From: Heptranchias perlo
Lineage: Eukaryota
Length of the DNA stretch: 64,000 nt
Direction of reading: 5' to 3'
Assembly: GCF_035084215.1 (NCBI RefSeq)
Contig: NC_090368.1
Location: 3,224,001 to 3,288,000, forward strand
In this document: in pieces, positions 4,285-62,229 of the stretch
How the letters are laid out: every line of letters begins with the position of its first letter
Numbering within the stretch: the first letter of the stretch is position 1
Notes under the pieces: generated by a model
What the model saw: the letters and a program-made list of their open reading frames with translations, nothing else
Told to the model about the DNA's origin: nothing
Database searches by the model: none
Position numbers and translations under genes: made by a program

Positions 4285-4440
4285 GGGCATGGTAGCGTGG
4301 TGGTTATGTTTCGGACGAGTGATCCAGAGGCCTGGACTAATAATTCAGTACAACGTGAGTTCAAATCCCACTGCGGTAGTTTGAGAATTTTGAATTCAGT
4401 TTATGAAGAAAATCTGGAAATAAAAAATGACCATGAAAAG
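4285..4440 (+). mobile_element. Diverged solo copy of the tRNA-like head found at the 5' end of the 53657-56950 LINE
   Basis: GGTAGCGTGTGGTTATGTT...GATCCAGAGGCCTGGACT...GAGTTCAAATCCC...AAATCTGGAA matches 53658-53830. Confidence 0.75.
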
Positions 4441-6409: not shown

Positions 6410-6900
6410 CAAGCCTCTGCTGCCCCCGTATCCTAACTCGCACCGAGTCCCGTTCACCCATCACCCCCCAGTGCTCGCTGACCTACATCGGCTCCCAGTC
6501 CAGGAACGCCTCGATTTTAAAATTCTCATCCTTGTGTTCAAATCCCTCCATGGCCCTCGCCCCCTCCCTATCTCTGTAACCTCCTCCAGCCCTACGACCC
6601 TCCAAGATCTCTGCGCTCCTCCAATTCTGGCCTCTGGGCAATCCCCCACTCCCTTCGCCTCATCATTGGCGGCCGTGCCTTCAGCTGCCTGGGCCCTAAG
6701 CTCTGGAATTCCCTCCCTAAACCTCTCCGCCTCTCTCTCCTCCTTTAAGACTCTCCTTAAAACCGACCTCTTTGACCGAGCTTTTGGTCGCCTGTCCTAA
6801 TATCTCCCTATGTGGCTCGGTGTCAAATTTTGTTTGATAATCGGTCCTGTGAAGAGCCTCGGGACGTTTTACTACGTTAAAGGCGCTATATAAATGCAGG
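6410..6900 (+). mobile_element. L2 LINE 3' end (further copies: 17810-18160 -, 25430-25810 -, 27079-27560 -, 33025-33210 -, 34075-34460 -, 37745-38195 -, 57150-57550 +, 61860-62230 +)
   Basis: Encodes LHRLPV..RLDFKILILVFKSLHG and RAFSCLGPKLWNSLP (L2 ORF2 C-terminus); tail GGCGCTATATAAATGCA. Confidence 0.85.
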
Positions 6901-8153
6901 CTGATGTGTAGGGCAAGAGGTTACAAGACCACGATGAGGGGGAATTTAAACACAAGGATGAGAATTCTAAAATCAGGGACAAGACTGGCAGAGAAATGAA
7001 AATTTTGGACACCACAAAGGCAGACAAGCAGTGAAAGGCTTTCCCCGAGTCGGCCTGTTTCTGGGACTCAGCGTGGGATGGACGCACGTAAAAGAAGCCC
7101 GATTAATTTATCTCGGGCTCAGAGCAGAGCTGGAGGGGGCTGTGGATCGTCAGCGACACCTCGTTCCCAAAAGGCCGATTAGCAGATAATCAGCTCCTCT
7201 CCGTGCCGCGGTTCAGTGAGGTGACAACGAGGACGACAGAAAGCCACACGGGATCTTATTCTTTCCGGAGCCCAAGGTTCAAGGTCATCTCGGCCGTTCT
7301 GGTTAGTTCTTAGCTGTCCCCGTTTCCCGTGTCCGAGAGTTCTTCATCAGTGTTTCGTTTCTTTAAACACTGAGGGAGCGCAGCACTGCCGGAGGTGCCC
7401 GTCTTTCGGATGAGACGTTAAACCGAGGCCCCGTCTGCCCCCCTCAGAAGAACGTAAAAGACGAAGAGCAGAGGAGTTCTCCCTGGTGTCCTGGTCCGAT
7501 ATTCATCACTAAAACAGATGATCTGGGTCATTGTCACATTGCTGTTTGTGGGATCTTGCTGTGCGCAAATTGGCTGCCTGCAACAGTGACCACACTTCAA
7601 AAAGTGCTTCATCGGCTGTAAAGCGCTTTGGGACGTCCTGAGGTCGTGAAAGGCGCGATAGAAATGCAAGTTCTTTCTTTCCTTGTTTTTTTTTTACCGA
7701 CTTCCCCCCCCTCCCCGCCCGAAACTCGGTTCAGGGCACTGAGGCCAACTATGGTTCACGGCTGCCGCCACGATTGAGGTCGGCAGTAGGGACAAACGTG
7801 CAGGAGGGAGGAGGCTGCAGCCTGCGCTGCTGCTCGCTGCAGCACTGCGATGCATTATTGATGCAGCAGTGCAGAAATTGCCACCTAAAGCAGGTTAGGG
7901 AGATGTGCTGACCGCAGCATTTCACGCAGCGAACGTGACTCTTTTGTACATGTGGTAATCCGGCCGTGCAGGGCGAGTCAGCTGCTTTCTCCCCCTCAAT
8001 CCAACTTCGGCCCAGCTCCATGCAGCTGGACTCTGCGGCAGTCTTCAACCTAAAAAAATCAATTTGGAATATCTGCAGCAATGCTGTTTGTTTTTTAATT
8101 TATATTTTTGTGGTGAGTTTTTGTGCTGCAAGAGGTACTTCTGATAAAAGCAA

Positions 8154-9505
8154 GTGTCCCATCAAACACTCCCAGGGCAGGTACAGCACGGGTTAGATAC
8201 AGAGTAAAGCTCCCTCTACACTGTCCCATCAAACACTCCCAGGGCAGGTACAGCACGGGTTAGATACAGAGTAAAGCTCCCTCTACACTGTCCCATCAAA
8301 CACTCCCAGGGCAGGTACAGCACAGGTTAGATACAGAGTAAAGCTCCCTCTACACTGTCCCATCAAACACTCCCAGGGCAGGTACAGCACGGGTTAGATA
8401 CAGAGTAAAGCTCCCTCTACACGGTCCCATCAAACACTCCCAGGGCAGGTACAGGGTTAGATACAGAGTAAAGCTCCCTCTACACTGTCCCATCAAACAC
8501 TCCCAGAGCAGGTACAGGGTTAGATACAGAGTAAAGCTCCCTCTACACTGTCCCATCAAACACTCCCAGGGCAGGTACAGGGTTAGATACAGAGTAAAGC
8601 TCCCTCTACACGGTCCCATCAAACACTCCCAGGGCAGGTACAGGGTTAGATACAGAGTAAAGCTCCCTCTACACTGTCCCATCAAACACTCCCAGGGCAG
8701 GTACAGCACAGGTTAGATACAGAGTAAAGCTCCCTCTACACTGTCCCATCAAACACTCCCAGGGCAGGTACAGCACGGGTTAGATACAGAGTAAAGCTCC
8801 CTCTACACTGTCCCATCAAACACTCCCAGGGCAGGTACAGCACGGGTTAGATACAGAGTAAAGCTCCCTCTACACTGTCCCATCAAACACTCCCAGGGCA
8901 GGTACAGCACAGGTTAGATACAGAGTAAAGCTCCCTCTACACTGTCCCATCAAACACTCCCAGGGCAGGTACAGCACGGGTTAGATACAGAGTAAAGCTC
9001 CCTCTACACGGTCCCATCAAACACTCCCAGGGCAGGTACAGGGTTAGATACAGAGTAAAGCTCCCTCTACACTGTCCCATCAAACACTCCCAGAGCAGGT
9101 ACAGGGTTAGATACAGAGTAAAGCTCCCTCTACACTGTCCCATCAAACACTCCCAGGGCAGGTACAGGGTTAGATACAGAGTAAAGCTCCCTCTACACGG
9201 TCCCATCAAACACTCCCAGGGCAGGTACAGGGTTAGATACAGAGTAAAGCTCCCTCTACACTGTCCCATCAAACACTCCCAGGGCAGGTACAGCACAGGT
9301 TAGATACAGAGTAAAGCTCCCTCTACACTGTCCCATCAAACACTCCCAGGGCAGGTACAGGGTTAGATACAGAGTAAAGCTCCCTTTACACTGTCCCATC
9401 AAACACTCCCAGGGCAGGTACAGGGTTAGATACAGAGTAAAGCTCCCTCTACACTGTCCCATCAAGCACTCCCAGGGCAGGTACAGCACAGGTTAGATAC
9501 AGAGT
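8154..9505. repeat. 67/63-bp satellite with a 587-bp higher-order repeat
   Basis: Unit TGTCCCATCAAACACTCCCAGGGCAGGTACAGCACGGGTTAGATACAGAGTAAAGCTCCCTCTACAC; the 63-bp variant lacks 4 nt. ORFs at 8350 and 8937 translate identically. Confidence 0.95.
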
Positions 9506-10610: not shown

Positions 10611-10824
10611 AAACTTACTGAATGGGACTGCACTGTGCAATAGTATCATGGTTGGTCCAATGCTGTCCACCCCAGTGGTCGGGGTATGCTGCAGACGCTC
10701 AGCGAGTTTACCTGAAAGTCAGCGAGCCTCGACCGTGGGATCAGGCAGCCTGTCTTGGCACCGAGAGTAAGCGGCTATTTGGCTCAGACCGTGAGGAGTC
10801 CTGAACTCGCGACTTAGCAGCACC

Positions 10825-10948
10825 TTCACCACATGGACTGCAGCGGTTCGAGAAGGCGGCTCACCACCACCTTCTCAGGGGGCAACTGGGGACGGGCGAG
10901 AAATGCCGGCCTTGCCAGTGGCGCCCACGTCCCCGGAACGATTAAATA
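10825..10948 (+). mobile_element. 3' tip of the family-B LINE
   Basis: GGACTGCAGCGGTTC..AAGGCGGCTCACCACCACCTTCTC matches 56835-56945. Confidence 0.8.
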
Positions 10949-25358: not shown

Positions 25359-26034
25359 GTAAGTCCGCATTAAGCGTCTCTTAGACTCGGTTGTCGGGCT
25401 CCTTGTTGGTGGTTCAGTGGGAACGACAACAACCTGCATTCATATAGCGCCTTTAACGTAGTAAAACGTCCCAGGGCGCTTCCCAGGAAAATTTGACACC
25501 GAGCCACATGAGATATTAAGACAGGTGACCAAAAGCTTGGTCAAAGAGGTAGGTTTTAAGGAGCGTCTTAAAGGAGGAGAGAGAGGCGGAGAGGTTTAGG
25601 GAGGGAATTCCAGAGATTTAGGGCCCAGGCAGCTGAAGGCACGGCCGCCAATGGTGGAGCGATGGAAATCGGGGATGCGCAAGAAGCCAGAATTGGAGGA
25701 GCGCAGGGATCTCGGAGGCTTGTAGGGCTGGAGGAGGTTACAGAGATATGGAGGGGGTGAGGGCCATGGAGGGATTTGATCATGAGGATGAGAATTTTAA
25801 ATTCTCATTACGTGCAGTACTGGCCTGTACAGAGCAGGCTCAGTGCTGAGTTGGCCGATCTTAGCCAGGGGTAAAGGTTGAGGCATTACAGAATGACCTC
25901 AATGACCATGGAAAAATGAGCCTGGGAACCTGTTCCTGGAACATGGTGTGCAGACGTCAGGTGAAGACCGGATCAGGCTTGTCCAAATTCTCTCAGAATC
26001 TCGACATCTTTCTGACCCGCTCTGCTACTTTCTC

Positions 26035-26750
26035 AGTGTCCCATTACCCCAGTGTCTCAGTGTCCCAGTGTCTCGGGTCCCAGTGTCTCAGTGTCTCATT
26101 ATCCCAGTGTCTCATTATCCCAGTGTCTCAGTGCCCCATTATCCCAGTGCCCCATTATCCCAGTGCCCCATTATCCCAGTGCCCCATTATCCCAGTGTCT
26201 CAGGGTCCCAGTGTCTCATTATCCCAGTGTCTCAGGGTCCCAGTGTCCCAGTGCCCCATTATCTCAGTGCCCCATTATCCCAGTGTCTCAGTGTCCCATT
26301 ATCCCAGTGTCTCAGTGTCCCAGTGTCTCAGGGTCCCATTATCCCAGTGTCTCAGTGTACCAGTGTCTCAGGGTCCCATTATCCCAGTGTCTCAGGGTCC
26401 CATTATCCCATTATCCCAATGTCTCAGGGTCCCATTATCCCAGTGTCTCAGGAACCCATTATCCCAGTGTCTCAGGAACCCATTATCCCAGTGTCTCAGG
26501 GTCCCATTATCCCATTATCCCAATGTCCCAGGGTCCCAGTGTCCCAGTGTCTCAGGAACCCATTATCCCAGTGTCTCAGGAACCCATTATCCCAGTGTCT
26601 CAGGGTCCCATGGTCCCAGGGTCCCAGTGTCTCAGGGTCCCAGTGTCTCAGGGTCCCATTGTCCCAGTGTCCCAGTGTCCCAGGGTCCCAGTGTCCCAGT
26701 GTCTCAGGGTCCCATTGTCCCAGTGTCTCAGTATCCCACTATCCCAGTTC
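26035..26750. repeat. Compound 8-mer satellite (CCCAGTGT/CTCAGGGT/CCCATTAT/CTCAGTGT)
   Basis: Irregular ordering of related 8-bp cells. Confidence 0.9.
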
Positions 26751-26992
26751 CCCACTGTGTTTCATTCTCTGGATCCCTACATTCTGCCTTGTTTCCCAGT
26801 CTCCCTCTATCCTGTTCCAGTTGGATGTGGATTGGGTTGATCGGTAACATCCCTTGAGCCATTGAGCAAGAATGTTTCATTTTAAATAACCATCCATTTG
26901 TTTTTCCTCCCCCTATATGTTGCTGCACTGCAGCTAACTTTATTTATCCTCCCCCCTCCCTCACCTCCTCCTCCTCCGATCCCGTCTCCTAG

Positions 26993-27099
26993 GAATTTTT
27001 CAGTGAAAATCTTTGGGAGAAGGTTCCCCGTTCCTGGCAGACGACACTGTCCGATTTAACCGCTCCACAGTTATCCACGTATATAGCGCCTTTAATGTA
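26993..27099 (+). CDS. METTL25B: METTL25B coding exon 2 (3' boundary uncertain: 27078, 27096 or 27099)
   Basis: tag|EFFSENLWEKVPRSWQTTLSDLTAPQLS resembles human [28 protein letters not shown]; runs into an antisense L2 tail. Confidence 0.85.
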
Positions 27100-28861
27100 G
27101 TAAAACGTCCCGAGGGGCTTCACAGCAGCGATTATCAAACAAAATTTGACACCGAGCCACGTAAGGAGATATTAGGACAGGTGACCAAAAGCTTGGTCAA
27201 AGAGGGAGGTTTTAAGGAGCGTCTTAAAGGAGGAGAGAGAGAGGCGGAGAGGATTAGGGAGGGAATTCCAGAGTTTAGGGCCCGGGCAGCTGAAGGCACG
27301 GCCGCCAATGGTGGAGCGATGGAAATCGGGGATGGGCAAGAGGCCAGAATTGGAGGAGCGCAGGGATCTCGGAGTGTTGCGGGACTGGAGGAGGTTACAG
27401 AGATAGGGAGGGGGGGGGGGGGCGAGGAGGCCATGGAGAGATTTGAAGACGAGGATGAGAATTTTAAAACCGGGAGCCGACGTAGGACAGCGAGCGCAGG
27501 GGGTGATGGCTGAACGGTTGCGAGTCAGAATACGGGGCAGCTAGAGTTTTGGACGAGCTGCCAAAGACTCCCAACCCCGATGGCTCAGGCAGTGAAGGGG
27601 GAGCCATATATACGGCAGGAAACTTCCAATTTCGAAGCCTGCTCGGTTGCCGGCAGTTCCCCCAGTACCTCGCCCAGTGACCGTTAGGGTATTGGCCCCG
27701 GCCGAACCCGATCCCGAGCATTCTCCGGCAGGAATCACTAGGTGGCAGTCAGGAACGAGAAACGCTCAGTCAGCATCTCCCGACGCTGTGACCTCTGCCA
27801 CCGAGAAGGCCAAGAGCAGCAACATCGCGGGCACTCCATCTCTTAGATCAGTCGAGTAGATTCCTCCACATCATATAGGTTCGGACGCCAGAGATAAATC
27901 AACTTGTTTGTTTTATTAATATCGACAGAAAGTACAAGCAGGGTCTGTGTCTATATACTCACCAGTAGGATATCCATCGGGGTCTGCGAACTACTAATCA
28001 ATCCAGGTGCGTTCTCAGCACGGAATACCCAATAATTACTGAAAGTGAGGCTATTTATGGCTGTGTAGTGACAGAATGGAGATGATTGGGTAATTCCCCG
28101 GTCAATCACGCCCGGGGACCGCGCTGCTGTAAGTGACTGGGATTGATTTTACGCACGTAATTTGTATTACGTAACTCTTCTCCTCTCACCACATCTTGCG
28201 GGAGAAATCTCCCTGCTTTTATCGGGAGAAGTTGCTGCAGTTTCGGTCATGTGTTCTGTTTGCTGTAGTTCGTAGAGTTTCTTTTTTAAATAGATTCTGT
28301 AGACTGTCTGCTGTAGTGGCGCTGTTTAAGTAGACTCCTATGGACAGTGGTATCAATAGACATGCTGCTTATTTATACAACCAGATGGACAATGTCAGGT
28401 GTCTTGCTCTAAACCTATCAATTCTGAGATTATTGTCACGTGATCTTTGTCACGTGCTACTACACCAGTTTTGGCAATAGCGTACCACAAACACTGCACT
28501 CTCACTGGAATGTTTTGTTTATGGAGAAGATTTCGCTCGGTTATAAACGTCACACCTTAACAGAATGATAAATATTTTGGCTCCAAACTGGTGCCAATTG
28601 TTTACACAAATCCTTCGAAGTGCAGTTTCACCCTGAGCCATAGGAACAGGAGGAGGCCATTCAGCCCCTCGAGCCTGTTCCGCCATTGACTGAGATCACG
28701 GCCCGATCATTTTTATTACCCTGGGGAGGGCTGTCGTCACCTGTGCCCTCAGGAGCGGAGTGAACTGGGAGAGGCGGTGGGGGGGGAGAATGACGAGACT
28801 GAAAACCGTTTACCTGTTCTCTCTCTCTCCCTCTCTCTTTCTGTGTGTTTTTTTTTTGCAG

Positions 28862-31385: not shown

Positions 31386-32153
31386 GGGTCGGGTACAGAC
31401 ACTGCCGGCCTGTATTAACAGGGTCAGGTACAGACACTGCCCGCCTGTATTAACAGGGTCGGGTACAGACACTGCCCGCCTGTATTAACAGGGTCGGGTA
31501 CAGACACTGCCCGCCTGTATTAACAGGGTCGGGTACAGACACTGCCCGCCTGTATTAACAGGGTCGGGTACAGACACTGCCCGCCTGTATTAACAGGGTC
31601 GGGTACAGACACTGCCAGCCTGTATTAACAGGGTCGGGTACAGACACTGCCCGCCTGTATTAACAGGGTCAGGTACAGACACTGCCCGCCTGTATTAACA
31701 GAGTCGGGTACAGACACTGCCCGCCTGCATTAACAGGGTCGGGTACAGACACTGCCAGCCTGTATTAACAAGGTCGGGTACAGACACTGCCCGCCTGTAT
31801 TAACAGGGTCGGGTACAGACACTGCCCGCCTGTATTAACAGAGTCGGGTACAGACACTGCCCGCCTGTATTAACAGGGTCGGGTACAGACACTGCCCGCC
31901 TGTATTAACAGAGTCGGGTACAGACACTGCCCGCCTGTATTAACAGGGTCGGGTACAGACACAGCCCGCCTGTATTAACAGGGTCGGGTACAGACACTGC
32001 CCGCCTGTATTAACAGAGTCGGGTACAGACACTGCCCGCCTGTATTAACAGGGTCAGGTACAGACACAGCCCGCCTGTATTAACAGGGTCGGGTACAGAC
32101 ACTGCCCGCCTGTATTAACAGGGTCAGGTACAGACACTGCCCGCCTGTATTAA
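31386..32153. repeat. 35-bp minisatellite, ~22 copies (GGGTCGGGTACAGACACTGCCCGCCTGTATTAACA)
   Basis: Near-identical tandem units with no spacers. Confidence 0.95.
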
Positions 32154-32399
32154 GAGTCTGTCTCACCCAGTGGCCTCAAACAGTGGAGAAGAACAAGTCA
32201 TTTCCACCAGTAGGGTGCAGTCCATATCATAACATGAGTAGCAACATACTTTACCTCTCCGAGCAACACCAGTAGCATGGTATATACCTCTCTGGAGCTC
32301 GCATGGTGCCTGCAAAAGCCAGCATCTGTTTGTGGATGAGGGGGGGGGAAGAGGGTATCACAAACTAGTCATGATTTGACCGCCTTGTTTTCTGTGCAG

Positions 32400-33878: not shown

Positions 33879-34829
33879 GTAAGGCAAAGGGAGGTGGGCA
33901 GGAGGGGGTCAGTTAACAAAAAACACACTGTTCCCATCTTTTACCTGCAGGATCCGACGGCGTGCACTACCTCTGCCTGCCTGCGGGTAGTGCTGCCGAG
34001 ACAGGTTGAGACTCAGGGTTGAAGTACCGCAGTGTGCCTCCTCGTGGCGCTGTCGAGACAGGCTGACTGGACCCATATAACTTGCATTTATATAGCGCCT
34101 ATGGCAGGACACTGGGAGAACTCGCTGATCTTTAACGTAGTGAAACGTCCCGAGGCGCTTCACGGGAGTGTTGGCGAACAAAATTTGACACCGAACCATA
34201 TTAGGACAGGTGACCAAAAGCTTGGTCAAAGAGGTAGGTTTTTAAGGAGCGTCTTAAAGGAGGAGAGAGAGGCGGAGAGGTTTAGGGAGGGAATTCCAGA
34301 GCTTAGGGCCCAGGCGGCTGAAGGCACGGCCGCCAATGGTGGAGCGATGGAAATCGGGGATGGGCAAGAGGCCAGAATTGGAGGAGCGCAGAGATCTCGG
34401 AGGGTTATGGGGCTGGAGGAGGTATTTGGAAACAAGGATGAGAATTTTAAAATCTAGGCATAAGAACCAATTAATTACTTTAAAAGTGTAGTCACTGTTC
34501 CTTTGTAGGTAAACTCAGCAGCCAATTTGCACACAGCAAGGGCCCACAAACGGGTGAATGCTGGTGTTGATTGAGCCAAGAAAATGGGAGATCTCCCTGC
34601 ACAGACAGACTGGGCCTCAGTTAAACATCTCTTTCAAAAGACGGCACCTCTGACAGTGCAGCACTCCCTCAGTACCACACTGGGAGTGTCGGCCTAGCTG
34701 ACGTGCTCATGTCTCTGGAGTGGGGCTCGAACCCACCACCTCCTGAACTCAGAGGTGAGAGTGCTGCCCACTGAGAAAGTCCTGAACTTACACTTCAGTT
34801 TGCTACCTGACTTAAATTGCACCAAAATG

Positions 34830-37000: not shown

Positions 37001-37235
37001 GGCACGGGTTAGATACAGAGTAAAGCTCCCTCTACACTGTCCCATCAAACACTCCCAGGGCAGGTACAGGGTTAGATACAGAGTAAAGCTCCCTCTACAC
37101 TGTCCCATCAAACACTCCCAGGGCAGGTACAGCACGGGTTCGATACAGAGTAAAGCTCCCTCTACACTGTCCCATCAAACACTCCCAGGGCAGGTACAGC
37201 ACGGGTTTGATACAGAGTAAAGCTCCCTCTACACT
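37001..37235. repeat. Short array (~3.5 units) of the 67/63-bp satellite
   Basis: Same monomer as 8154-9505. Confidence 0.9.
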
Positions 37236-37581
37236 GCCTCCAACCTTAGAACAGTTTTTAAATCTGCAGAAAATTCCTTGTCCCTGACCTCGAGTGCTGC
37301 GGCCCCACAGCGGCAATGCCTGCGTTGAAGGCGCTCTCTAAATGCAAGCTGATGCGGCACAAGCCTGCGACCACCCTGGGACACTCAGACTGAGAAGCCG
37401 CTGGGCCAGGAGGGAAGATTCGACAGCAATATCTGCTTTCTTTCCCCAAGAGTTAGCAGGACATTTGATGCAGGATTCCCGGTCGGGGTCTCCGTATGTG
37501 GGCACTTTATTCACTATAGTCTGACCGGGGGAACTTAAAAGCAGGAAAAGGCGGGAGGGAGCTACCAGGTACACAACTCAC

Positions 37582-37712: not shown

Positions 37713-39075
37713 CTGTGTAGCAGAAGGAGCAAGCGATTGGTAGCAACACCAACTTATACAGCGGCTTTAACATAATAAAATTCCCCGAGGCGCTTCACAG
37801 GAGCGATTATCAGACAAAATTTGGCACCGAGCCACATAAGGAGATATTAGGACAGGTGACCAAAAGCTCAGTCAAAGAGGTAGGTTTTAAGGAGCGTCTT
37901 AAAGGAGGAGAGAGAGGCGGAGAGGTTTCGGGAGGGAATTCCAGAGCTTAGGGCCCAGGCAGCTGAAGGCACGGCCGCCAATGGTGGAGCGATGGAAATC
38001 GGGGGATGCGCAAGAGGCCAGAATTGGAGGAGTGCAGAGATCTCGGAGGGTCGTAGGGCTGGAGGAGGTTACAGAGAGAGAGGGAGGGGCGAGGCCATGG
38101 AGGGATTTGAAAACCAGGATGAGAATTTTAAAATGGAGGGGTTGCCGGACCAGGAGCCGATGTAGGTCAGCGAGCGCAGGGGGTGATGGGTGAACTCTCA
38201 GCCTTTCCCACACGTTTGCCTTTAAAGTTGAATTTTAGCACCTTCCAGTTTCTCGGTGGATAACAGCACTTCCCAGTGTAGTACTGAGCCCGACCGAGCA
38301 GGAAGATCCCAGGATCAATCCCTGGGGGGGGTGGTGATTCCCGCAGAGGTATAGTCCCACGTGTACACAACACCGTCCCGTACCTCGCCCAGCTCAGGCG
38401 CGAGCAGGTTATCAGTCGGATATTCAACTACGGGAGGCATCAGAGGTGAACCCGATGCTCCATTCTGGATTGACCTTTGCACCCAGGCACAATCCAGCAG
38501 GGGTCACTGGATAACAATCAAGAGCAGGAACCCTGGCCGATTCCTCCCCCCACACCCGGCTGAACCACAACCGCTGCCCGACGGAGACAGGCCAGGAAGG
38601 GGGAAAATTGAGTCTGGGATCTTTCTAGTCTGCCTGGCTCAGCGCCGCACGCCACGGTGCACTTGCCAACTCAAGCCGTCTGGGCACCCCGGGTGCTGGG
38701 AGGGTCGGTGGGACCGGGATTAAACCTCATCCCTTCACGGAGGCAACATCGTTTCCCCTTCCTTAACCTGTTACAGGCCGACACTCCAGGTGCCGGTACT
38801 GAGGGAGTGCTGCACTGTCAGAGGTGCCGTCTTTCAGATGAGACGTTAAACCAAGGCCCCGTCTGCCCTCTCTCGGGTGGACGTAAAAGATTCCACGACC
38901 ACTATTTCGAAGAGGAGCATGGGGGGGGCGGGGGGGGGGGGAGTTCTCCCCCGGGGTGTCCCGGGACCAGTATTTATCCCTCATTAACCACCATCACTAA
39001 GATCTGGTCATTATCACATTCCTGTTTGTGGGACCTTGCTGTGCACAAATTGGCGTTCCCGACGCTACAACTTAC

Positions 39076-43343: not shown

Positions 43344-43543
43344 NNNNNNNNNNNNNNNNNNNNNNNNNNNNNNNNNNNNNNNNNNNNNNNNNNNNNNNNN
43401 NNNNNNNNNNNNNNNNNNNNNNNNNNNNNNNNNNNNNNNNNNNNNNNNNNNNNNNNNNNNNNNNNNNNNNNNNNNNNNNNNNNNNNNNNNNNNNNNNNNN
43501 NNNNNNNNNNNNNNNNNNNNNNNNNNNNNNNNNNNNNNNNNNN
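43344..43543. other. Assembly gap (~200 N)
   Basis: Run of N. Confidence 0.99.
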
Positions 43544-44710
43544 TCCATATCCCTCTATACCCATCTTACCCATGTAACTGTCCAAATGCTTTTTAAAAGA
43601 CAAAATTGTACCCGCCTCTACTACTGCCTCTGGCAGCTCGTTCCAGACACTCACCACCCTTTGAGTGAAAAAATTGCCCCTCTGGACCTTTTGTATCTCT
43701 CCCCTCTCACCTTAAATCTGTGCCCCCTCGTTATAGACTCCCCTACCTTTGGGAAAAGATTTTGACTATCGACCTTATCTATGCCCCTCATTATTTTATA
43801 GACTTCTATAAGATCACCCCTTAACCTCCTACTCTCCAGGGAATAAAGTCCCAGTCTGTCTAACCTCTCCCTGTAAGTCAAACCATCAAGTCCCGGTAGC
43901 ATCCTAGTAAATCTTTTCTGCACTCTTTCTAGTTTAATAATATCCTTTCTATAATAGGGTGACCAGAACTGTACACAGTACTCCAAGTGTGGCCTCACCA
44001 ATGCCCTGTACAACTTCAACAAGACATCCCAACTCCTGCATTCAATGTTCTGACCAATGAAACCAAGCATGCTGAATGCCTTCTTCACCACCCTATCCAC
44101 CTGTGACTCCACTTTCAAGGAGCTATGAATCTGTACTCCTAGATCTCTTTGTTCTATAACTCTCCCAACGCCCTACCATTAACGGAGTAGGTCCTGGCCC
44201 GATTCGATCTACCAAAATGCATCACCTCACATTTATCTAAATTAAACTCCATCTGCCATTCATCGGCCCACTGGCCCAATTTATCAAGATCCCGTTGCAA
44301 TCCTAGATAACCTTCTTCACTGTCCACAATGCCACCAATCTTGGTGTCATCTGCAAACTTACTAACCATGCCTCCTAAATTCTCATCCAAATCATTAATA
44401 TAAATAACAAATAACAGCGGACCCAGCACCGATCCCTGAGGCACACCGCTGGACACAGGCATCCAGTTTGAAAAACAACCCTCTACAACCACCCTCTGTC
44501 TTCTGTCGTCAAGCCAATTTTGTATCCAATTGGCTACCTCACCTTGGATCCCATGAGATTTAACCTTATGTAACAACCTACCATGCGGTACCTTGTCAAA
44601 TGCTTTGCTGAAGTCCATGTAGACCACGTCTACTGCACAGCCCTCATCTATCTTCTTGGTTACCCCTTCAAAAAACTCAATCAAATTCGTGAGACATGAT
44701 TTTCCTCTCA
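43544..44710 (-). mobile_element. Young CR1 (family A), 5'-truncated
   Basis: KSCLTNLIEFF, YMDFSKAFDKVPH, KFADDTK; nearly identical to 51250-52420. Confidence 0.95.
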
Positions 44711-46753
44711 CTCTACCATTACCAACAAGCCAGGGGATCAACCCTGGTTCAATGAGGAGTGTAGAAGAGCATGCCAGGAGCAGCACCAGGCGTACCTAAA
44801 AATGAGGTGCCAACCTGGTGAAGCTACAACTCAGGACTACATGCATGCTAAACAGTGAAAGCAACATGCTATAGACAGAGCTAAGCGATTCCACAACCAA
44901 CGGATCAGATCAAAGCTCTGCAGTCCTGCCACATCCAGTCGTGAATGGTGGTGGACAATTAAACAACTAACGGGAGGAGGAGGCTCTGTAAACATCTCCA
45001 TCCTCAATGATGGCGGAGTCCAGCACATGAGTGCAAAAGACAAGGCTGAAGCGTTTGCAACCATCTTCAGCCAGAAGTGCCGAGTGGATAATCCATCTCA
45101 GCCTCCTCCCGATATCCCCACCATCACAGAAGCCAGTCTTCGGCCAATTCGATTCACTCCACGTGATATCAAGAAACGGCTGAGTGCACTGGATACAGCA
45201 AAGGCTATGGGCCCCGACAACATCCCAGCTGTAGTGCTGAAAACTTGTGCTCCAGAACTAGCTGCGCCTCTAGCCAAGCTGTTCCAGTACAGTTACAACA
45301 CTGGCATCTACCCGACAATGTGGAAAATTGCCCAGGTATGTCCTGTCCACAAAAAGCAGGACAAATCCAATCCGGCCAATTACCGCCCCATCAGTCTACT
45401 CTCAATCATCAGCAAAGTTATGGAAGGTGTCGTCGACAGTGCTATCAAGCGGCACTTACTCACCAATAACCTGCTCACCGATGCTCAGTTTGGGTTCCGC
45501 CAGGACCACTCGGCTCCAGACCTCATTACAGCCTTGGTCCAAACATGGATAAAAGAGCTGAATTCCAGAGGTGAGGTGAGAGTGACTGCCCTTGACATCA
45601 AGGCAGCATTTGACCGAGTGTGGCACCAAGGAGCCCGAGTAAAATTGAAGTCAATGGGAATCAGGGGAAAACTCTCCAGTGGCTGGAGTCATACCTAGCA
45701 CAAAGGAAGATGGTAGTGGCTGTTGGAGGCCAATCATCTCAGCCCCAGGACATTGCTGCAGGAGTTCCTCAGGGCAGTGTCCTAGGCCCAACCATCTTCA
45801 GCTGCTTCATCAATGACCTTCCCTCCATCATAAGGTCAGAAATGGGGATGTTCGCTGATGATTGCGCAGTGTTCAGTTCCATTCGCAACCCCTCAAATAA
45901 TGAAGCAGTCCGAGCCCGCATGCAGCAAGACCTGGGCAACATCCAGGCTTGGGCTCATAAGTGGCAAGTAACATTCGCGCCAGATAAGTGCCAGGCAATG
46001 ACCATCTCCAACAAGAGAGAGTCTAACCACCTCCCCTTGACATTCAACGGCATTACCATCACCGAATCCCCCACCATCAACATCCTGGGGGTCACCATTG
46101 ACCAGAAACTTAACTGGACCAGCCATATAAATACTGTGGCTACAAGAGCAGGTCAGAGGCTGGGTATTCTGCGGTGAGTGATTCACCTCCTGACTCCCCA
46201 AAGCCTTTCCACCATCTACAAGGCACAAGTCAGGAGTTATGATGGAATACTCTCCACTTGCCTGGATGAGTGCAGCTCCAACAACACTCAAGAAGCTCGA
46301 CACCATCCAGGACAAAGCAGCCCGCTTGATTGGCACCCCATCCACCACCCTAAACATTCACTCCCTTCACCACAGGCGCACAGTGGCTGCAGTGTGTACC
46401 GTCCACAGGATGCACTGCAGCAACTCGCCAAGGCTTCTTCGACAGCACCTCCCAAACCCGCGACCTCTACCACCTAGAAGGACAAGGGCAGCAGGAACAT
46501 GGGAACAACACCACCTGCACGTTCCCCTCCAAGTCACACACCATCCCGACTTGAAAATATATCGCCGTTCCTTCATCACCGCTGGGTCAAAATCCTGGAA
46601 CTTCCTAACAGCACTGTGGGAGAACCGTCACCACACGGACTGCAGCGGTTCAAGAAGGCGGCTCACCACCACCTTCTCAAGGGCAATTAGGGATGGGCAA
46701 TAAATGCCGGCCTCGCCAGCAACGCCCACATCCCATGAACGAATAAAAAAAAA
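44708..46753 (+). mobile_element. Family-B LINE, 5'-truncated, with stops and frameshifts
   Basis: ALDIKAAFDRVWH, GVPQGSVLGP, MFADD; ends in an A-rich tail. Confidence 0.95.
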
Positions 46754-50761: not shown

Positions 50762-52529
50762 TTCAACAAGGTCATCTATGTGCGGAACCACAAGAGATGG
50801 GTGAGATCCTGAATGAATATTTCACATCGGCATTTACGGTTGAGAAAGGCATGGATGTTAGGGAACTTGGGGAAATAAATAGTGATGTCTTGAGGAGTGT
50901 ACATATTACAGAGAGGGAGGTGCTGGAAGTCTTAACGTGCATCAAGGTAGATAAATCTCCGGGACCTGATGAAATGTATCCCAGGACGTTATGGGAGGTT
51001 AGGGAGGAAATTGCGGGTCGCCTAGCAGAGATATTTGAATCATCGACAACGACAGGTAAGGTGCCTGAAGATTGGAGGGTAGCAAATGTTGTGCCTTTGT
51101 TTAAGAAGGGCGGCAGGGAAAAGCCTGGGAACTACAGACCGGTGAGCCTGGCATCTGTAGTGGGTAAGTTGTTAGAGGGTATTCTGACGGACAGGATCTA
51201 CAGGCATTTGGAGAGGCAGGGACTAATTAGGAACAGTCAGCATGGTTTTGTGAGAGGAAAATCATGTCTCACGAATTTGATTGAGTTTTTTGAAGGGGTA
51301 ACCAAGAAGATAGATGAGGGCTGTGCAGTAGACGTGATCTACATGGACTTCAGCAAAGCCTTTGACAAGGTACCGCATGGTAGGTTGTTACATAAGGTTA
51401 AATCTCATGGGATCCAAGGTGAGGTAGCCAATTGGATACAAAATTGAATTGACGACAGAAGACAGAGGGTGGTTGTAGAGGGTTGTTTTTCAGACTGGAG
51501 GCCTGTGACCAGCGGTGTGCCTCAGGGATCGGTGCTGGGTCCGCTGTTATTTGTTATTTATATTAATGATTTGGATGAGAATTTAGGAGGCATGGTTAGT
51601 AAGTTTGCAGATGACACCAAGATTGGTGGCATTGTGGACAGTGAAGAAGGTTATCTAGGATTGCAACGGGATCTTGATAAATTGGGCCAGTGGGCCGATG
51701 AATGGCAGATGGAGTTTAATTTAGATAAATGTGAGGTGATGCATTTTGGTAGATCGAATCGGGCCAGGACCTACTCCGTTAATGGTAGGGCGTTGGGGAG
51801 AGTTATAGAACAAAGAGATCTGGGAGTACAGGTTCATAGCTCCTTGAAAGTGGAGTCACAGGTGGATAGGGTGGTGAAGAAGGCATTCAGCATGCTTGGT
51901 TTCATTGGTCAGAACATTGAATGCAGGAGTTGGGATGTCTTGTTGAAGTTGTACAAGACATTAGTAAGGCCACACTTGGAATACTGTGTACAGTTCTGGT
52001 CACCCTATTATAGAAAGGATATTATTAAACTAGAAAGAGTGCAGAAAAGATTTACTAGGATGCTACCGGGACTTGATGGTTTGACTTATAGGGAGAGGTT
52101 AGACAGACTGGGACTTTTTTCCCTGGAGAGTAGGAGGTTAAGGGGTGATCTTATAGAAGTCTATAAAATAATGAGGGGCATAGATAAGGTAGATAGTCAA
52201 AATCTTTTCCCAAAGGTAGGGGAGTCTATAACGAGGGGACATAAATTTAAGGTGAGAGGGGAGAGATACAAAAGGGTCCAGAGGGGCAATTTTTTCACTC
52301 AAAGGGTGGTGAGTGTCTGGAACGAGCTGCCAGAGGCAGTAGTAGAGGCGGGTACAATTTTGTCTTTTAAAAAGCATTTGGACAGTTACATGGGTAAGAT
52401 GGGTATAGAGGGATATGGGCCAAGTGCAGGCAATTGGGACTAGCTTAGTGGTATAAACTGGGCGACATGGACATGTTGGGCCGAAGGGCCTGTTTCCATG
52501 TTGTAACTTCTATGATTCTATGATTCTAT
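50762..52529 (+). mobile_element. Young CR1 (family A), 5'-truncated, ORF2 intact except one TGA at 51445
   Basis: ORFs 50671-51447 and 51469-52443 are in the same frame; tail (CTATGATT)n. Confidence 0.95.
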
Positions 52530-52616
52530 ATTATAATATCTCCTGTCTCAGTCTCTAAGGGACCAATGTTTACTTTTGCTACTATCTTCCTTTTTACATA
52601 CTAGTAGAAGCTCTTA

Positions 52617-53503
52617 CAGTGTTCAGTTCCATTTGCAACCCCTCAGATAATGAAGCAGTCCGAGCCCGCATGTAGCAAGACCTGGACAACATCCAGGCTT
52701 GGGCTCATAAGTGGCAAGTAACATTCGCGCCAGACAAGTGCCAGACAATGACCATCTCCAACAAGAGAGAGTCTAACCACCTCCCCTTGACATTCAACGG
52801 CATTACCATCGCCGAATCCCCCACCATCAACATCCTGGGGGTCACCATTGACCAGAAACTTAACTGGACCAGTCATATAAATACTGTGGCTACAAGAGCA
52901 GGTCAGAGGCTGGGTATTCTGCGGCGAGTGACTCACCTCCTGACTCCCAAAAGCCTTTCCACCATCTACAAGGCACAAGTCAGGAGTGTGATGGAATACT
53001 CTCCACTTGCCTGGATGAGTGCAGCTCCAACAACACTCAAGAAGCTCGACACCATCCAGGACAAATCAGCCCGATTGGCACCCCATCCACCACCCTAAAC
53101 ATTCACTCCCTTCACCACCGGCGCACCGTGGCTGCAGTGTGTACCATCCACAGGATGCACTGCAGCAACGTGCCAAGGCTTCTTCGACAGCACCTCCCAA
53201 ACCCGCGACCTCTACCACCTAGAAGGACAAGGGCAGCAGGCACATGGGAACAACACCACCTGCACGTTCCCCTCCAAGTCACACACCATCCCGACTTGGA
53301 AATATATCACCGTTCCTTCATCGTCGCTGGGTCAAAATCCTGGAACTCCCTTCCTAACAGCACTGTGGGAGAACCGTCACCACACGGACTGCAGCGGTTC
53401 AAGAAGGTGACTCACCACCACCTTCTCAAGGGCAATTAGGGATGGGCAATAAATGCCGGCCTCGCCAGCGACGCCCACATCCCATGAATGAATAATAAAA
53501 AAA
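52617..53503 (+). mobile_element. Family-B LINE 3' fragment
   Basis: Matches 56060-56950; A-rich tail. Confidence 0.93.
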
Positions 53504-53656
53504 ATCCATTTTGATATTTCTTGCTGGTTTACTTTCATATTCTATTTTCTCCCTTTTTTTCAATTTTTGGTTGTCCTTTTTTGGTTTCTAAAACTTTCCC
53601 AATCCCCAGGCTTATTACTCTTCTTGGCAACATTATAGGCCTCTTCTTTCAATCTA

Positions 53657-56600
53657 CGGTAGCATAGTGGTTATGTTACTGGACTAGTAATCCAGAGACC
53701 TGGACTGAAATCCGGAGTCATGAGTTCAAATCCCGCCACGGCAGCTGGGAAATTTAAATTCAATTAATTAATTAAATTCAATTAATTAAATAAAAATCTG
53801 GAATTAAAATACTGGTATCAGTAATGGTGGCCATGTCGTAAAAACCCATCTGGTTCACTAATGTTCTTCAGGGAAGGAAACCTGCCGTCCTTACCCGGTC
53901 TGGCCTATATGTGACTCCAGACCCACAGCAATGTGGTTGATTCTTAATTGCCCTCTGAAATGGCCCAGCAAGCCACTCAGTCGTAAAATCTCGCTACAAA
54001 AAGTCATAATAAGAATAAAACCGGACGGACCACCCGGCACCAGACACGATGATGGCAAACCAAGCCCAGTCGACCCTGCAAGGTCCTCCTTACTAACATC
54101 TGGGGACTTGTGCCAAAATTGGGAGAGCTGTCCCACAGACTAGTCAAGCAACAGCCTGACATAGCCATACTCACAGAATCATACCTTTCAGCCAACGTCC
54201 CAGACTCTTCCATCACCATCCCTGGGTATGTCCTGTCCCACCGGCAGGACAGACCCACCAGAGGTGGCGGTACAGTGATATACAGTCAGGAGGGAGTGGC
54301 CCTGGGAGTCCTCAACATTGACTCTGGACCCCATGAAATCTCATGGCATCAGGTCAAACATGGGCAAGGAAACCTCCTGCTGATTACCACCTACCGTCCT
54401 CCCTCAGCTGATGAATCAGTCCTCCTCCATGTTGAGCACCACTTGGAGGAAGCACTGAGGGTAGCAAGGGCACAAAATGTACTCTGGGTGGGGGACTTCA
54501 ATGTCCATCACCAAGAGTGGCTCGGTAGCACCACTACTGACCGAGCTGGCCGAGTCCTGAAGGACATAGCTGCTAGACTGGGCCTGCGGCAGGTGGTGAG
54601 CGAACCAACACGAGGGAAAAACTTACTTGACCTCGTCCTCACCAATCTACTTGTCGCAAATGCATCTGTCCATGACAGTATTGATAGGAGTGACCACCGC
54701 ACAGTCCTCGTGGAGACAAAGTCCCGTCTTCGCACTGAGGACACCATCCAACGTGTTGTGTGGCACTACCACCGTGCTAAATGGGATAGATTCAGAACAG
54801 ATCTAGCAGCTCAAAACTGGGCATCCATGAGGCACTGTGGGCCATCAGCAGCAGCAGAATTGTATTCCACCACAATCTGTAACCTCATGGCCCGGCATAT
54901 TCCTCAATCTACCATTACCAACAAGCCAGGAGATCAACCCTGGTTCAATGAGGAGTGTAGAAGAGCATGCCAGGAGCAGCACCAGGCGTACCTAAAAATG
55001 AGGTGCCAACCTGGTGAAGCTACAACTCAGGACTACATGCATGCTAAACAGCGGAAGCAACATGCTATAGACAGAGCTAAGCGATTCCACAACCAACAGA
55101 GCAGATCAAAGCTCTGCAGTCCTGCCACATCCAGTCGTGAATGGTGGTGGACAATTAAACAACTAACGGGAGGAGGAGGCTCTGTAAACATCCCCATCCT
55201 CAATGATGGCGAAGTCCAGCAAGTGAGTGCAAAAGACAAGGCTGAAGCGTTTGCAACCATCTTCAGCCAGAAGTGCCAAGTGGATGATCCATCTCAGCCT
55301 CCTCCCGATATTCCCACCATCACAGAGGCCAGTCTTCAGCCAATTTGATTCACTCCACGTGATATCAAGAAACGGCTGAGTGCACTGGATACAGCAAAGG
55401 CTATGGGCCCCGACAACATCCCAGCTGTAGTGCTGAAGACTTGTGCTCCAGAACTAGCTGCGCCTCTAGCCAAGCTGTTCCAGTACAGCTACAACACTGG
55501 CATCTACCCGACAATGTGGAAAATTGCCCAGGTATGTCCTGTCCACAAAAAGCAGGACAAAGCCAATCCGGCCAATTACCGCCCCATCAGTCTACTCTCA
55601 ATCATCAGCAAAGTGATGGAAGGTGTCGTCGACAGTGCTATCAAGCGGCACTTACTCACCAACAACCTGCTCACCAATGCTCAGTTTGAGTTCCGCCAGG
55701 ACCACTCGGCTCCAGACCTCATTACAGCCTTGGTCCAAACATGGATAAAAGAGCTGAATTCCAGAGGTGAGGTGAGAGTGACTGCCCTTGACATCAAGGC
55801 AGCATTTGACCGAGTGTGGCACCAAGGAGCCCTAGTAAAATTGAAGTCAATGGGAATCAGGGGGAAAACTCTCCAGTGGCTGGAGTCATACCTAGCACAA
55901 AGGAAGATGGTAGTGGTTGTTGGAGGCCAATCATCTCAGCCCCAGGATTGCTGCAGGAGTTCCTCAGGGCAGTGTCCTAGGCCCGACCATCTTCAGCTGC
56001 TTCATCAATGACCTTCCCTCCATCATAAGGTCAGAAATGGGGATGTTCGCTGATGATTGCACAGTGTTCAGTTCCATTCGCAACCCCTCAAGTAATGGAG
56101 CAGTCCGAGCCCGCATGCAGAAAGACCTGGGCAACATCCAGGCTTGGGCTCATAAATGGCAAGTAACATTCACGCCAGATAAGTGCCAGGCAATGACCAT
56201 CTCCAACAAGAGAGAGTCTAACCACCTCCCCTTAACATTCAACGGCATTACCATCGCCGAATCCCCCACCATCAACATCCTGGGGGTCACCATTGACCAG
56301 AAACTTAACTGGACCAGCCATATAAATACTGTGGCTACAAGAGCAGGTCAGAGGCTGGGTATTCTGCGGCGAGTGACTCACCTCCTGACTCCCCAAAGCC
56401 TTTCCACCATCCACAAGGCACAAGTCAGGAGTATGATGGAATACTCTCCACTTGCCTGGATGAGTGCAGCTCCAACAACACTCAAGAAGCTCGACACCAT
56501 CCAAGATAAAGCAGCCCGCTTGATTGGCACCCCATCCACCACCCTAAACATTCACTCCCTTCACCACCGGCGCACTGTGGCTGCAGTGTGTACCATCCAC

Positions 56601-56950
56601 AGGATGCACTGCAGCAACTCGCCAAGGCTTCTTCGACAGCACCTCCAAAACCCGCGACCTCTCCCACCTAGAAGGACAAGGGCAGCAGGCACATGGGAAC
56701 AACACCACCTGCACGTTCCCCTCCAAGTCACACACCATCCCGACTTGGAAATATACCGGCCGTTCCTTCATCGTCGCTGGGTCAAAATCCTGGAACTCCC
56801 TTCCTAACAGCACTGTGGGAGAACCTTCACCACACGGACTGCAGCGGTTCAAGAAGGCGGCTCACCACCACCTTCTCAAGGGCAATTAGGGATGGGCAAT
56901 AAATGCCGGCCTCGCCAGCGACACCCACATCCCATGAACGAATAAAAAAA
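53657..56950 (+). mobile_element. Full-length family-B non-LTR retrotransposon (APE + RT, CR1/Jockey-group-like, no ORF1, tRNA-like 5' head)
   Basis: Target-site duplication AATCTA at 53651-53656 and 56951-56956. APE motifs NIWGL, LTES, GDFN, LDLV, SDH; RT motifs QGSVLGP, FADD. One stop (55346) and frameshifts. Confidence 0.92.
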
Positions 56951-57557
56951 AATCTAATACTCTCCTTAACTTCTTTTGTTAGCTACGGGTGAATCACTTT
57001 TCCCATGGAGTTTTTATTTCTCAATGGAATGTATAGTTATTGAGAATATTGAAATATTTCTTTAAATGTTTGCCGTTGCTTATCATTGCCATTGATGGGC
57101 TGAATGGCCTACTCCTGTTCCTATTGGTAACTTCAGACCCATTGGTCCATGTATTTTAAAATTCTCATCCTTGTTTTCAAATCCCTCCATGGCCCTCGCC
57201 ACCTCCCTCTCTCTGTGACCTCCTCCAGCCCTACGACCCTCCGAGATCTCTGCGCTCCTCCAATTCTGGCCTCTTGCGCATCCCCCGATTTCCATCACTC
57301 CACCATTGGCGGCCGTGCCTTCAGCTGCCTGGGCCCTAAGCTCTGGAATTCCCTCCCTAAACCTCTCCGCCTCTCTCTCCTCCTTTAAGATGCTCCTTAA
57401 AACCTACCTCTTTGACCAAGCTTTTGGTCACCTGTCCTAATATCTCCTTATGTGGCTCGGTGTCAAATTTTGTCTGATTTACGCTCCTGTGAAGCGCCTT
57501 GGGGACGTTTTACTACGGTAAAAGGGCTAGATAAATGCAAATTGTTGTTGAATCAGC

Positions 57558-58690: not shown

Positions 58691-58845
58691 TTTTTTTATT
58701 TTTCGTTCATGGGATGTGTGGTGACGGTTCTCCCACAGTGCTGTTAGGAAGGGAGTTCCAGGATTTTGACCCAGCGACGATGAAGGAACGGCCGATATAT
58801 TTCCAAGTCGGGATGGGGTGTGACTCGGAGGGGAACGTGCAGGTG
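58691..58845 (-). mobile_element. Family-B LINE 3' fragment with internal deletion, inserted in SAT-like exon 1
   Basis: Reverse complement of 56706-56835 joined to the tail CATCCCATGAACGAAAAATAAAAAAA. Confidence 0.9.
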
Positions 58846-59064
58846 GACGACACGGCGCACATTGTTCGAATGATCGAGGTCCGACAGCAGCCCCCACACC
58901 CCGGGGGATGTCTCCTTAAAGGGGAAGTTAATTGTGGTACGACTTTTAAAGACTGGTTGCACCCACGGGGAGGGGGCCGCAGTCCTCCCCTTGTGTTTGG
59001 TTTCACATTACCAGCTTGTCCCCCTTTTTCTTTTATTTTTCAGGTGCAATAAGTTTGGAATCAC

Positions 59065-60087
59065 CAGGCGGCAGAGGGTGCACTGGGGGGTGTTGGAGGG
59101 CACACTGGGGCATTGGAAGGCGCAGTGGGGAGTATGAGGGTGCACTGGGGGGTATAGAGGGCACACTGGGGCATTGGAAGGTGCAGTGGGGGGTTTGGAG
59201 GGCGCACTGGGACGTTGGAGGGCGCACTGGAGTGTTGGAGGGTGCTCTGGACGTTGGAGGGCGCACTGGGGGGACGATGGAGGGCGCACTGGGGGGCGAT
59301 GGAGGGCGCACTGGGGGGCGATGGAGGGCGCACTGGGGGACGATGGAGGGCGCACTGGGGCGATGGAGGGCGCACTGGGGCGATGGAGGGCGCACTGGGG
59401 CGATGGAGGGCGCACTGGGGCAATGGAGGGTGCACTGGAGGGGATGGAGGGCACACTGGAGGGGCGATGGAGGGCGCACTGGGGGCGATGGAGGGCGCAC
59501 TGGGGCGATGGAGGGCGCACTGGGGCGATGGAGGGCGCACTGGGGCAATGGAGGGCGCACTGGGATGTTGGAGGGTGCACTGGAGGGGATGGAGGGCACA
59601 CTGGAGGGGCGATGGAGGGCGCACTGGGGGCGATGGAGGGCGCACTGGGGCGATGGAGGGTGCACTGGGATGTTGGAGGGCGCGATGGAGGGGATGGAGG
59701 GCACACTGGAGGGGATGGAGGGCGCACTGGGGCGATGGAGGGCGCACTGGGGCGATGGAGGGCGCGATGGAGGGGATGGAGGGCGCACTGGGGGGCGATG
59801 GAGGGCGCGATGGAGGGGATGGAGGGCGCACTGGGGGGCGATGGAGGGCGCACTGGGGCGATGGAGGGCGCGATGGAGGGGATGGAGGGCGCACTGGGGC
59901 GATGGAGGGCGCGCTGGGGCGATGGAGGGCGCGATGGAGGGGATGGAGGGCGCGATGGAGGGGATGGAGGGCGCACTGGAGGGGATGGAGGGCGCACTGG
60001 GGCGATGGAGGGCGCGCTGGGGCGATGGAGGGCGCGATGGAGGGGATGGAGGGCGCGATGGAGGGGATGGAGGTCGCACTGGGGGTC
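59065..60087. repeat. ~20-bp G-rich minisatellite (GGAGGGCGCACTGGGGCGAT)
   Basis: Tandem repetition within SAT-like intron 1. Confidence 0.95.
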
Positions 60088-61576: not shown

Positions 61577-62074
61577 CATTTATGACTGAAACCTTCTTCC
61601 TTTCTCTTGTAGGGCACACGGTGGTGGGATACGCAATGTACTTTTTCACCTATGGCCCCTGGAAGGGCAGGATGGTTTATATGTAAGACCTCTATGTAAT
61701 GGCAGTGTTCAGAGGTGTGTGTTTGGTTGGACATGTACAGCTTCGCCTCTGGTGTAGGGTGAGGATATTCATTCATCCCGTCAGTAGGGGGCGGGTCGTC
61801 GGGATGAGTCATAAGGCAAGGCCCCTTTCGCCTGTGCCTCAAATTGCCCCATTCACTTATGGGCCCCCTCCCTATCTCTGTGACCTCCTCCAGCCCTACG
61901 ACCCTCCGAGATCTCTGCGCTCCTCCAATTCTGGCCTCTTGCACATCCCCAATTTCCATCGCTCCACCATTGGCGGCCGTGCCTTCAGCTGCCTGGGCCC
62001 GAAGCTCTGGAATTCCCTCCCTAAACCTCTCCGCCTCTCTCTCCTCCTTTAAGACGCTCCTCAAAACCAACCTT

Positions 62075-62164
62075 TTGACATCGAGCCATATAAGGAGATA
62101 TTAGGACAGGTGACCGAGCTTTTGGTCACCTGTCCTAATATCTCCTTATATGGCTCGGTGTCAA
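62075..62164. repeat. 41-bp-arm inverted repeat with 8-nt loop inside an L2 tail
   Basis: TTGACATCGAGCCATATAAGGAGATATTAGGACAGGTGACC / GGTCACCTGTCCTAATATCTCCTTATATGGCTCGGTGTCAA. Confidence 0.9.
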
Positions 62165-62229
62165 GTTTTGTCTCCTGTGAAGGACCTTGGGACGTTTTAC
62201 TACGTTAAAGGCGCTATATAAATGCAAGT

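Follow-up and report, generated by a model that had tools for sequence, protein, structure and literature searches.

The element at 53651-56956 of the 64-kb stretch of shark DNA analysed here (the window) is a decayed copy of an elasmobranch Zenon LINE, a family already catalogued in the available parts of Stuart et al. 2026 (PMC13343379). This family, which is abundant in sharks and rays and codes for its own copying enzyme, carries a conserved tRNA-type head, apparently unremarked in the sources as far as they were accessible, together with a statistical Pol III signature. Head, A tail and all that lies between them move as a single unit of 3.3 kb, which has one ORF (basic leader, endonuclease and reverse transcriptase (RT)) that lacks a usable in-frame AUG. 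Judged from these sequence features, the family is probably an autonomous LINE that Pol III transcribes and whose translation does not begin at a normal AUG.

Anatomy of the element and its surroundings

All parts of the window element lie on the forward (+) strand. Short direct repeats of AATCTA stand at its left end (53651-53656) and its right end (56951-56956), the latter overlapping the A tract. The sequence-only reading had taken them for a 6-bp target duplication; the repeats are present, but the duplication is probably 4 bp (AATC), because the last two letters are the family's own first two and the window copy lacks the three leading G with which 29 of 39 two-ended copies begin. The tRNA-like head (53655-53742), which is seen by eye in the published consensuses as well, contains an A-box-like motif (53660-53670), an anticodon-like hairpin arm (53679-53695), a second arm (53700-53715) and a B-box-like motif (53724-53732); these motifs and both repeats lie exactly where that reading had placed them. 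An AT-rich spacer of variable length (53743-53830), shorter by 2 and 14 bases in the window copy than in copy L035, leads to a conserved non-coding body (53831-53982) that is common to the LINE and its SINE-sized forms and is a candidate translation-initiation element. The basic, AUG-less ORF leader (53983-54092) is open in intact copies, and an AUG-started stretch of ~70 codons in another frame (53931-54143) overlaps the start of the main ORF. Further downstream are an apurinic-type endonuclease domain (54095-54697; Pfam PF03372 and PF14529, matched over residues 15-215 in the frame that opens at 54053), an RT domain (55547-56294; PF00078), matched in two later frames of the window copy, and a 3′ tail with the A tract (56860-56952), which is shared with the SINE-sized forms and holds AATAAA at 56898-56903 and 56941-56946. 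The window copy is dead: it has stops at 54050-54052, within the leader, and at 55346-55348, upstream of the RT domain; two bases lost near 55947 break the frame, and one base has been gained at 56758. From the first of these stops to the NIWGL motif there is no in-frame ATG, and nothing resembling an ORF1 was found, only ~330 nt preceding the ORF in full-length copies, in agreement with what had been read from the letters.

Five Zenon copies or fragments had been counted in the window, and this number holds. Besides the headed element there are two 5′-truncated copies at 44707-46753 (+; 97.0% identical) and 52616-53502 (+; 95.9%), a short 3′ fragment at 58716-58846 (−; 96.9%) and an older 3′ tail fragment at 10819-10946 (+; 85.9%). 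An older, diverged lone head lies at 4291-4413 (+; 75.4%). Other repeats are also present. A very young CR1-type LINE has left two 3′ fragments, 43545-44719 (−) and 51242-52418 (+), which are 97.9% alike and show 99% identity to many genomic copies. Tandem arrays occupy 8155-9505, 19579-20114, 26031-26758, 31386-32156 (period 70 bp), 37002-37236 and 59074-60085; the stretch at 37002 and the array at 8155 share a unit of ~63-67 bp. A ~400-bp repeat, whose translation resembles what we take to be the end of an L2-type ORF, recurs with 80-94% identity at 57153-57548, 6415-6907, 17811-18135 and 25426-25804, with further pieces at 27077-27546, 34130-34423, 37752-38195 and 61863-62229. An assembly gap of 200 N lies at 43344-43543.

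The 5′ end, coding capacity and short derivatives of the family

Zenon LINEs are described in sharks and rays, hagfish and coelacanth, in all cases without an ORF1 and with a poly-A tail (PMC13343379, available parts). The supplement of that study displays the first 400 nt of each consensus, which we compared by eye. All seven elasmobranch consensuses (SquAca_Zenon-1, -2 and -3, and Zenon-1 of CarCar, ScyCan, RhiTyp and HypSab; five species, 2.9-3.3 kb) open with the head, body and leader and are free of T4 in the visible 400 nt (7/7); the B box of the ray consensus is degenerate. SquAca_Zenon-1 matches the window element closely over this region. The two hagfish and one coelacanth consensuses have no such head in their first 400 nt and contain T-runs. 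In the accessible material the elasmobranch consensuses show no structural difference from the window element, with which they share a length of ~3.3 kb, the absence of ORF1, the endonuclease and RT, and the poly-A tail. The defining traits of Zenon are found here: a single ORF with endonuclease and RT and no ORF1, a tail of the poly-A and not the microsatellite type (19 of the 20 copies fetched have an A tract), and likeness to the catalogued elasmobranch elements in the first 400 nt. The esterase ORF1 upstream of ORF2 that typifies canonical vertebrate CR1 is absent from the element, and its protein is 27% identical to CR1 of the same genome. A protein homology search with the Zenon ORF returned seven matches, none with a clade label; identity to outside relatives, mostly unnamed and one named from amphioxus, is at most 40% over the full length.

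The family itself is catalogued, and loss of ORF1 is known for Zenon, Rex1 and many L2 elements (PMC13343379, available parts). The word ‘tRNA’ has no match in the text and supplement of that paper, nor ‘polymerase III’ in the text, and the head, the avoidance of T-runs, the AUG-less leader and the derived SINEs apparently go unremarked in the portions available.

Searches of the 3.25-Gb genome were evaluated for the best 40 of 2538 candidates for the UTR/ORF junction and the best 40 of 3018 for the head. Among 29 non-self junction copies, 23 begin no more than 9 nt from one common point and two more within 21 nt of it; the remaining four are cut at 50-151, and flanks are unrelated among loci. 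With the head as query, 25 of 29 non-self loci continue into the ORF and four join the tail directly. A headless query from the middle of the element recovered 29 copies, of which eight reach the head and the others end at scattered points, with no second shared 5′ end among them. The head is therefore a feature of the family, in the scored genomic copies as well as in the seven published consensuses (as far as visible), a point that the sequence-only reading had put up for checking. Twenty head-bearing matches were retrieved over their whole length; the A tail is reached by 19 of them, and five have an unbroken ORF of 968-984 codons. The first Met of these ORFs, residue 245, lies so far in that a protein begun there would miss the endonuclease. 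Unbroken ORFs in head-bearing copies are in line with the autonomy proposed for the family. Eleven young copies are 95.6-99.3% identical in pairs, and the young copies as a whole go back to few masters.

Where target duplications occur at all, they are short. In a strict search, duplications of at least 4 bp flank 8 of 39 units, a small excess over the 7.2% of mismatched pairs (P = 0.006); a permissive search gave noise except for a 28-bp repeat at locus L049. At one locus (L074/L151; G000:C2:96818136-96818584) a SINE-sized derivative with a 4-bp duplication sits within the 3′ end of a second Zenon copy, offering a direct view of a short target duplication. Separately, a shark aldo-keto-reductase gene model (P0002) includes a segment with 80% identity to roughly one quarter of the Zenon ORF, which represents either mis-annotation or exonisation of a Zenon piece.

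As a tRNA, the head is weak. ARAGORN called no tRNA in the whole window, and the match to the Rfam tRNA model scores 17.3 bits, under the cut-off of 29. Alignment to tRNA-Thr(TGT) of the same genome scores 50-53.5, compared with a mean of 29 and a maximum of 46.5-54 in 500 shuffles, and the score against tRNA-Cys, the only other isotype compared, is slightly lower. The Thr-like head of the earlier description accordingly survives in part: it is tRNA-like with A and B boxes in place, but it is degenerate, and two isotypes do not suffice to establish Thr. Near-identical tRNA-Cys genes form arrays at ~1.8-18.4 Mb of contig G000:C23 (L291-L320), many ~2.35 kb apart and including some tRNA-Thr(TGT) genes. 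With respect to SINE2 elements, Zenon shares the tRNA-related head at the 5′ end, in which both an A and a B box are present, albeit weak as a tRNA; the short, non-coding character of SINE2 is seen only in its 420-530 nt derivatives, the 3.3-kb element having an ORF of ~968 codons.

The ORF frame is open for ~35 basic codons ahead of the endonuclease. In 76 of 81 copies the length of this leader is divisible by three, with five common classes of 108, 111, 123, 126 and 129 nt, while the upstream spacer varies more freely (37 of 70). This preservation suggests that the leader is translated, length being equally compatible with the main frame and with the overlapping AUG-started frame (53931-54143). 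In-frame ATGs occur in the leaders of only 7 of 81 copies. Inspection by eye shows the leader frame preserved too in the first consensuses of four among the five species, and in these an ATG in another frame is present in that region (PMC13343379, first 400 nt). RNAalifold on 18 aligned bodies found no real covariation (double changes at 3 of 30 pairs; covariation term −0.32).

Young forms that join head to tail are 420-530 nt long and show at least eight different junctions, three of them common to 3-4 copies each, indicating that some derivatives have multiplied. In an older layer the heads are 72-84% like the young head and mostly SINE-sized: 23 of 29 old-type heads pass directly to the tail, through variable junctions that often keep the first leader bases. 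None of these 29 heads continues into the endonuclease, and one (L097) joins mid-ORF. Old and young short forms together fit repeated internal deletion of a headed LINE. The suggestion that the family spawns SINEs in this way has thus gained observed junctions, many and varied, from which we infer the deletion origin.

T-run depletion and the route of transcription

Runs of at least four T terminate Pol III transcription. A scan of the sense strand for T4-T5 terminators found no T4 against 4.3 expected (P = 0.013), which favours the Pol III promoter proposed from the letters, and there are 7 T3 runs against 21.5 expected (P = 0.0003). Runs of A, C and G (19 A4, 11 C4 and 5 G4) show no such depletion. 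The T3 ratio of 0.33 is below that of every one of the 80 LINE relatives from metagenomes (median 1.07, minimum 0.58), including seven with a T content below 0.25, and T4 is present in 79 of these 80, the exception (L228) being 1489 nt long. Among two-ended copies, 15 of 20 have no T4 and five have one each, in differing places. Phe codons are TTT:TTC 3-4:15-16 in the five intact Zenon ORFs and 22-27:8-10 (~3:1 for TTT) in four clean CR1 ORFs of the same genome, which have 11 T4 each. A fifth CR1 row (L121; G000:C1:197901425-197907050) was excluded from this control, being a nested insertion in Zenon; a chance 740-codon frame there links the Zenon endonuclease to the CR1 RT, and the candidate fusion ORF was rejected, as a CR1 fragment is inserted in Zenon and Zenon resumes beyond it. 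No A/B-box pair was seen upstream of the 80 metagenome relatives, a count measured from the first matched residue, with many contigs lacking a true 5′ end and no positive control.

The statistical weight of the depletion depends on the null. It is significant given third-position composition (P = 0.004-0.01) and not under synonymous-codon shuffling within the ORF (P = 0.06-0.11), so the signal consists mostly of TTT avoidance and low T content. Moreover, since the young copies stem from few masters, it is close to one single observation.

Based on these data, we propose a probable mechanism. Pol III would transcribe from the A and B boxes in the head, starting at the leading GGG, and would read through the whole element because its T-runs have presumably been purged, stopping once it meets a T-run in the DNA beyond. 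Its uncapped product could be translated by a non-AUG or reinitiation route, with the help of either the conserved body or the upstream frame that overlaps the ORF. The resulting protein would then copy the RNA from the A tract by target-primed reverse transcription, which is established for LINEs in general. Internal deletions retaining head, body and tail may yield ready-made SINEs. Contigs of eight runs cover the head and ORF, and such contigs show neither start, strand nor level. Pol III transcripts are described as short owing to weak processivity (PMC10886601, available passages), which counts against this mechanism.

A head of tRNA or SINE origin might instead now serve Pol II, or accompany a Pol II promoter in the body, the poverty in T being compositional; we regard this as a less likely alternative. 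The AATAAA signals at 56898 and 56941 fit Pol II equally well and count against Pol III, as do 13 old-type alignments that share a T4 near position 110, indicating that old SINE-type copies tolerate such runs. The outcome of the codon shuffle and the degeneracy of the head for ARAGORN and Rfam point the same way, and butterfly Zenon, which has no Pol III promoter, also yields deletion derivatives (PMC6740152, in the passages available). However, the A and B boxes are kept in the consensuses of five species (in the visible 400 nt), the T3/T4 depletion is specific to T and exceeds that of every relative, even those poor in T, and copies start where Pol III would begin on a tRNA gene.

An element with no promoter of its own, co-transcribed with host genes by Pol II, is improbable. 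Here the tRNA-like fold would be a processing signal, for instance for RNase P, that sets the 5′ end, in a manner we liken to the ribozyme of R2, whose cleavage is mentioned in the accessible part of PMC5786205; the RNase P idea is our own. The sharp 5′ ends of copies are in keeping with this, an uncapped processed RNA would fit the AUG-less ORF equally well, and 39% of whale-shark CR1-Zenon-like elements are intronic (10.1101/443036, as far as available). On the other hand, the avoidance of T-runs is left unexplained and the head does not form a full cloverleaf. Finally, chance juxtaposition of a SINE with a 5′-truncated LINE, or non-autonomous chimeras of a longer, ORF1-bearing LINE, would be in keeping with the weak target duplications, but this is refuted by the identical head-to-ORF junction at dozens of independent loci with unrelated flanks and in the visible parts of the seven published consensuses, by head-bearing copies with unbroken ORFs, and by the headless query. 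Transcription of the headed LINE by Pol III thus remains our preferred reading.

Relation to known elements and significance

The following comparisons draw on the accessible passages of each source. Lepidopteran Zenon and its derivative Persaeus (PMC6740152) share the single ORF, the poly-A tail and short derivatives with deletions that retain 5′ and 3′ ends; Persaeus has neither tRNA homology nor a Pol III promoter, whereas the shark derivatives carry A and B boxes and are thus a true SINE form. RTE-1_DAn and elements related to it (Repbase; PMC5786205) are a precedent for the combination, as autonomous LINEs stated to hold a tRNA-like sequence. They differ in belonging to the RTE clade, and the passages give no position for that sequence and make no Pol III claim. 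The bipartite SINEs Bov-tA, CoeSINE4 and SINE2-1_EC (PMC5786205) likewise combine a tRNA head with LINE-derived 5′ and 3′ parts; in their case the head is proposed to have been added after deletion within the LINE, whereas in shark Zenon the autonomous LINE itself is headed. HE1 (V-SINE), SacSINE1 (Deu) and the CmiSINEs (CORE) are also tRNA-headed and from cartilaginous fish (PMC5499810, PMC3747384), but their partners are described as HER1, L2-2_CM or CR1-like LINEs and not Zenon, a distinction that rests on these descriptions.

Bivalve SINEs share tails with CR1-Zenon (PMC11481361), and as regards the conserved central domain that marks the MetaSINE, Deu, V and CORE superfamilies, visual comparison of the element with the bivalve Meta sequences (PMC4824008, first of four supplement parts) brought out no clear resemblance. 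No description of the Zenon head occurs in the available portions of PMC5499810, PMC4824008, PMC3747384, PMC7245038, PMC10886601 or 10.1101/443036, and a literature search, conducted outside Repbase, Dfam and most subscription journals and on titles, abstract openings and available passages, found neither a Pol III-driven LINE nor a Zenon head.

In the literature, transcription by Pol II is ascribed to LINEs, whereas SINEs figure as non-coding products of Pol III (PMC10886601 and PMC5786205, available passages). If our reading is true, a coding LINE with a tRNA promoter would break this division. It would also provide a Pol III messenger of 3.3 kb that occurs in nature and starts translation in an unusual way, and a direct route to the birth of SINEs in which no head need be captured. 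Since unbroken ORFs survive in natural copies, the question is open to immediate testing. Even if Pol III is not involved, the family would still possess a head that is conserved in sharks and rays and was missed by annotation.
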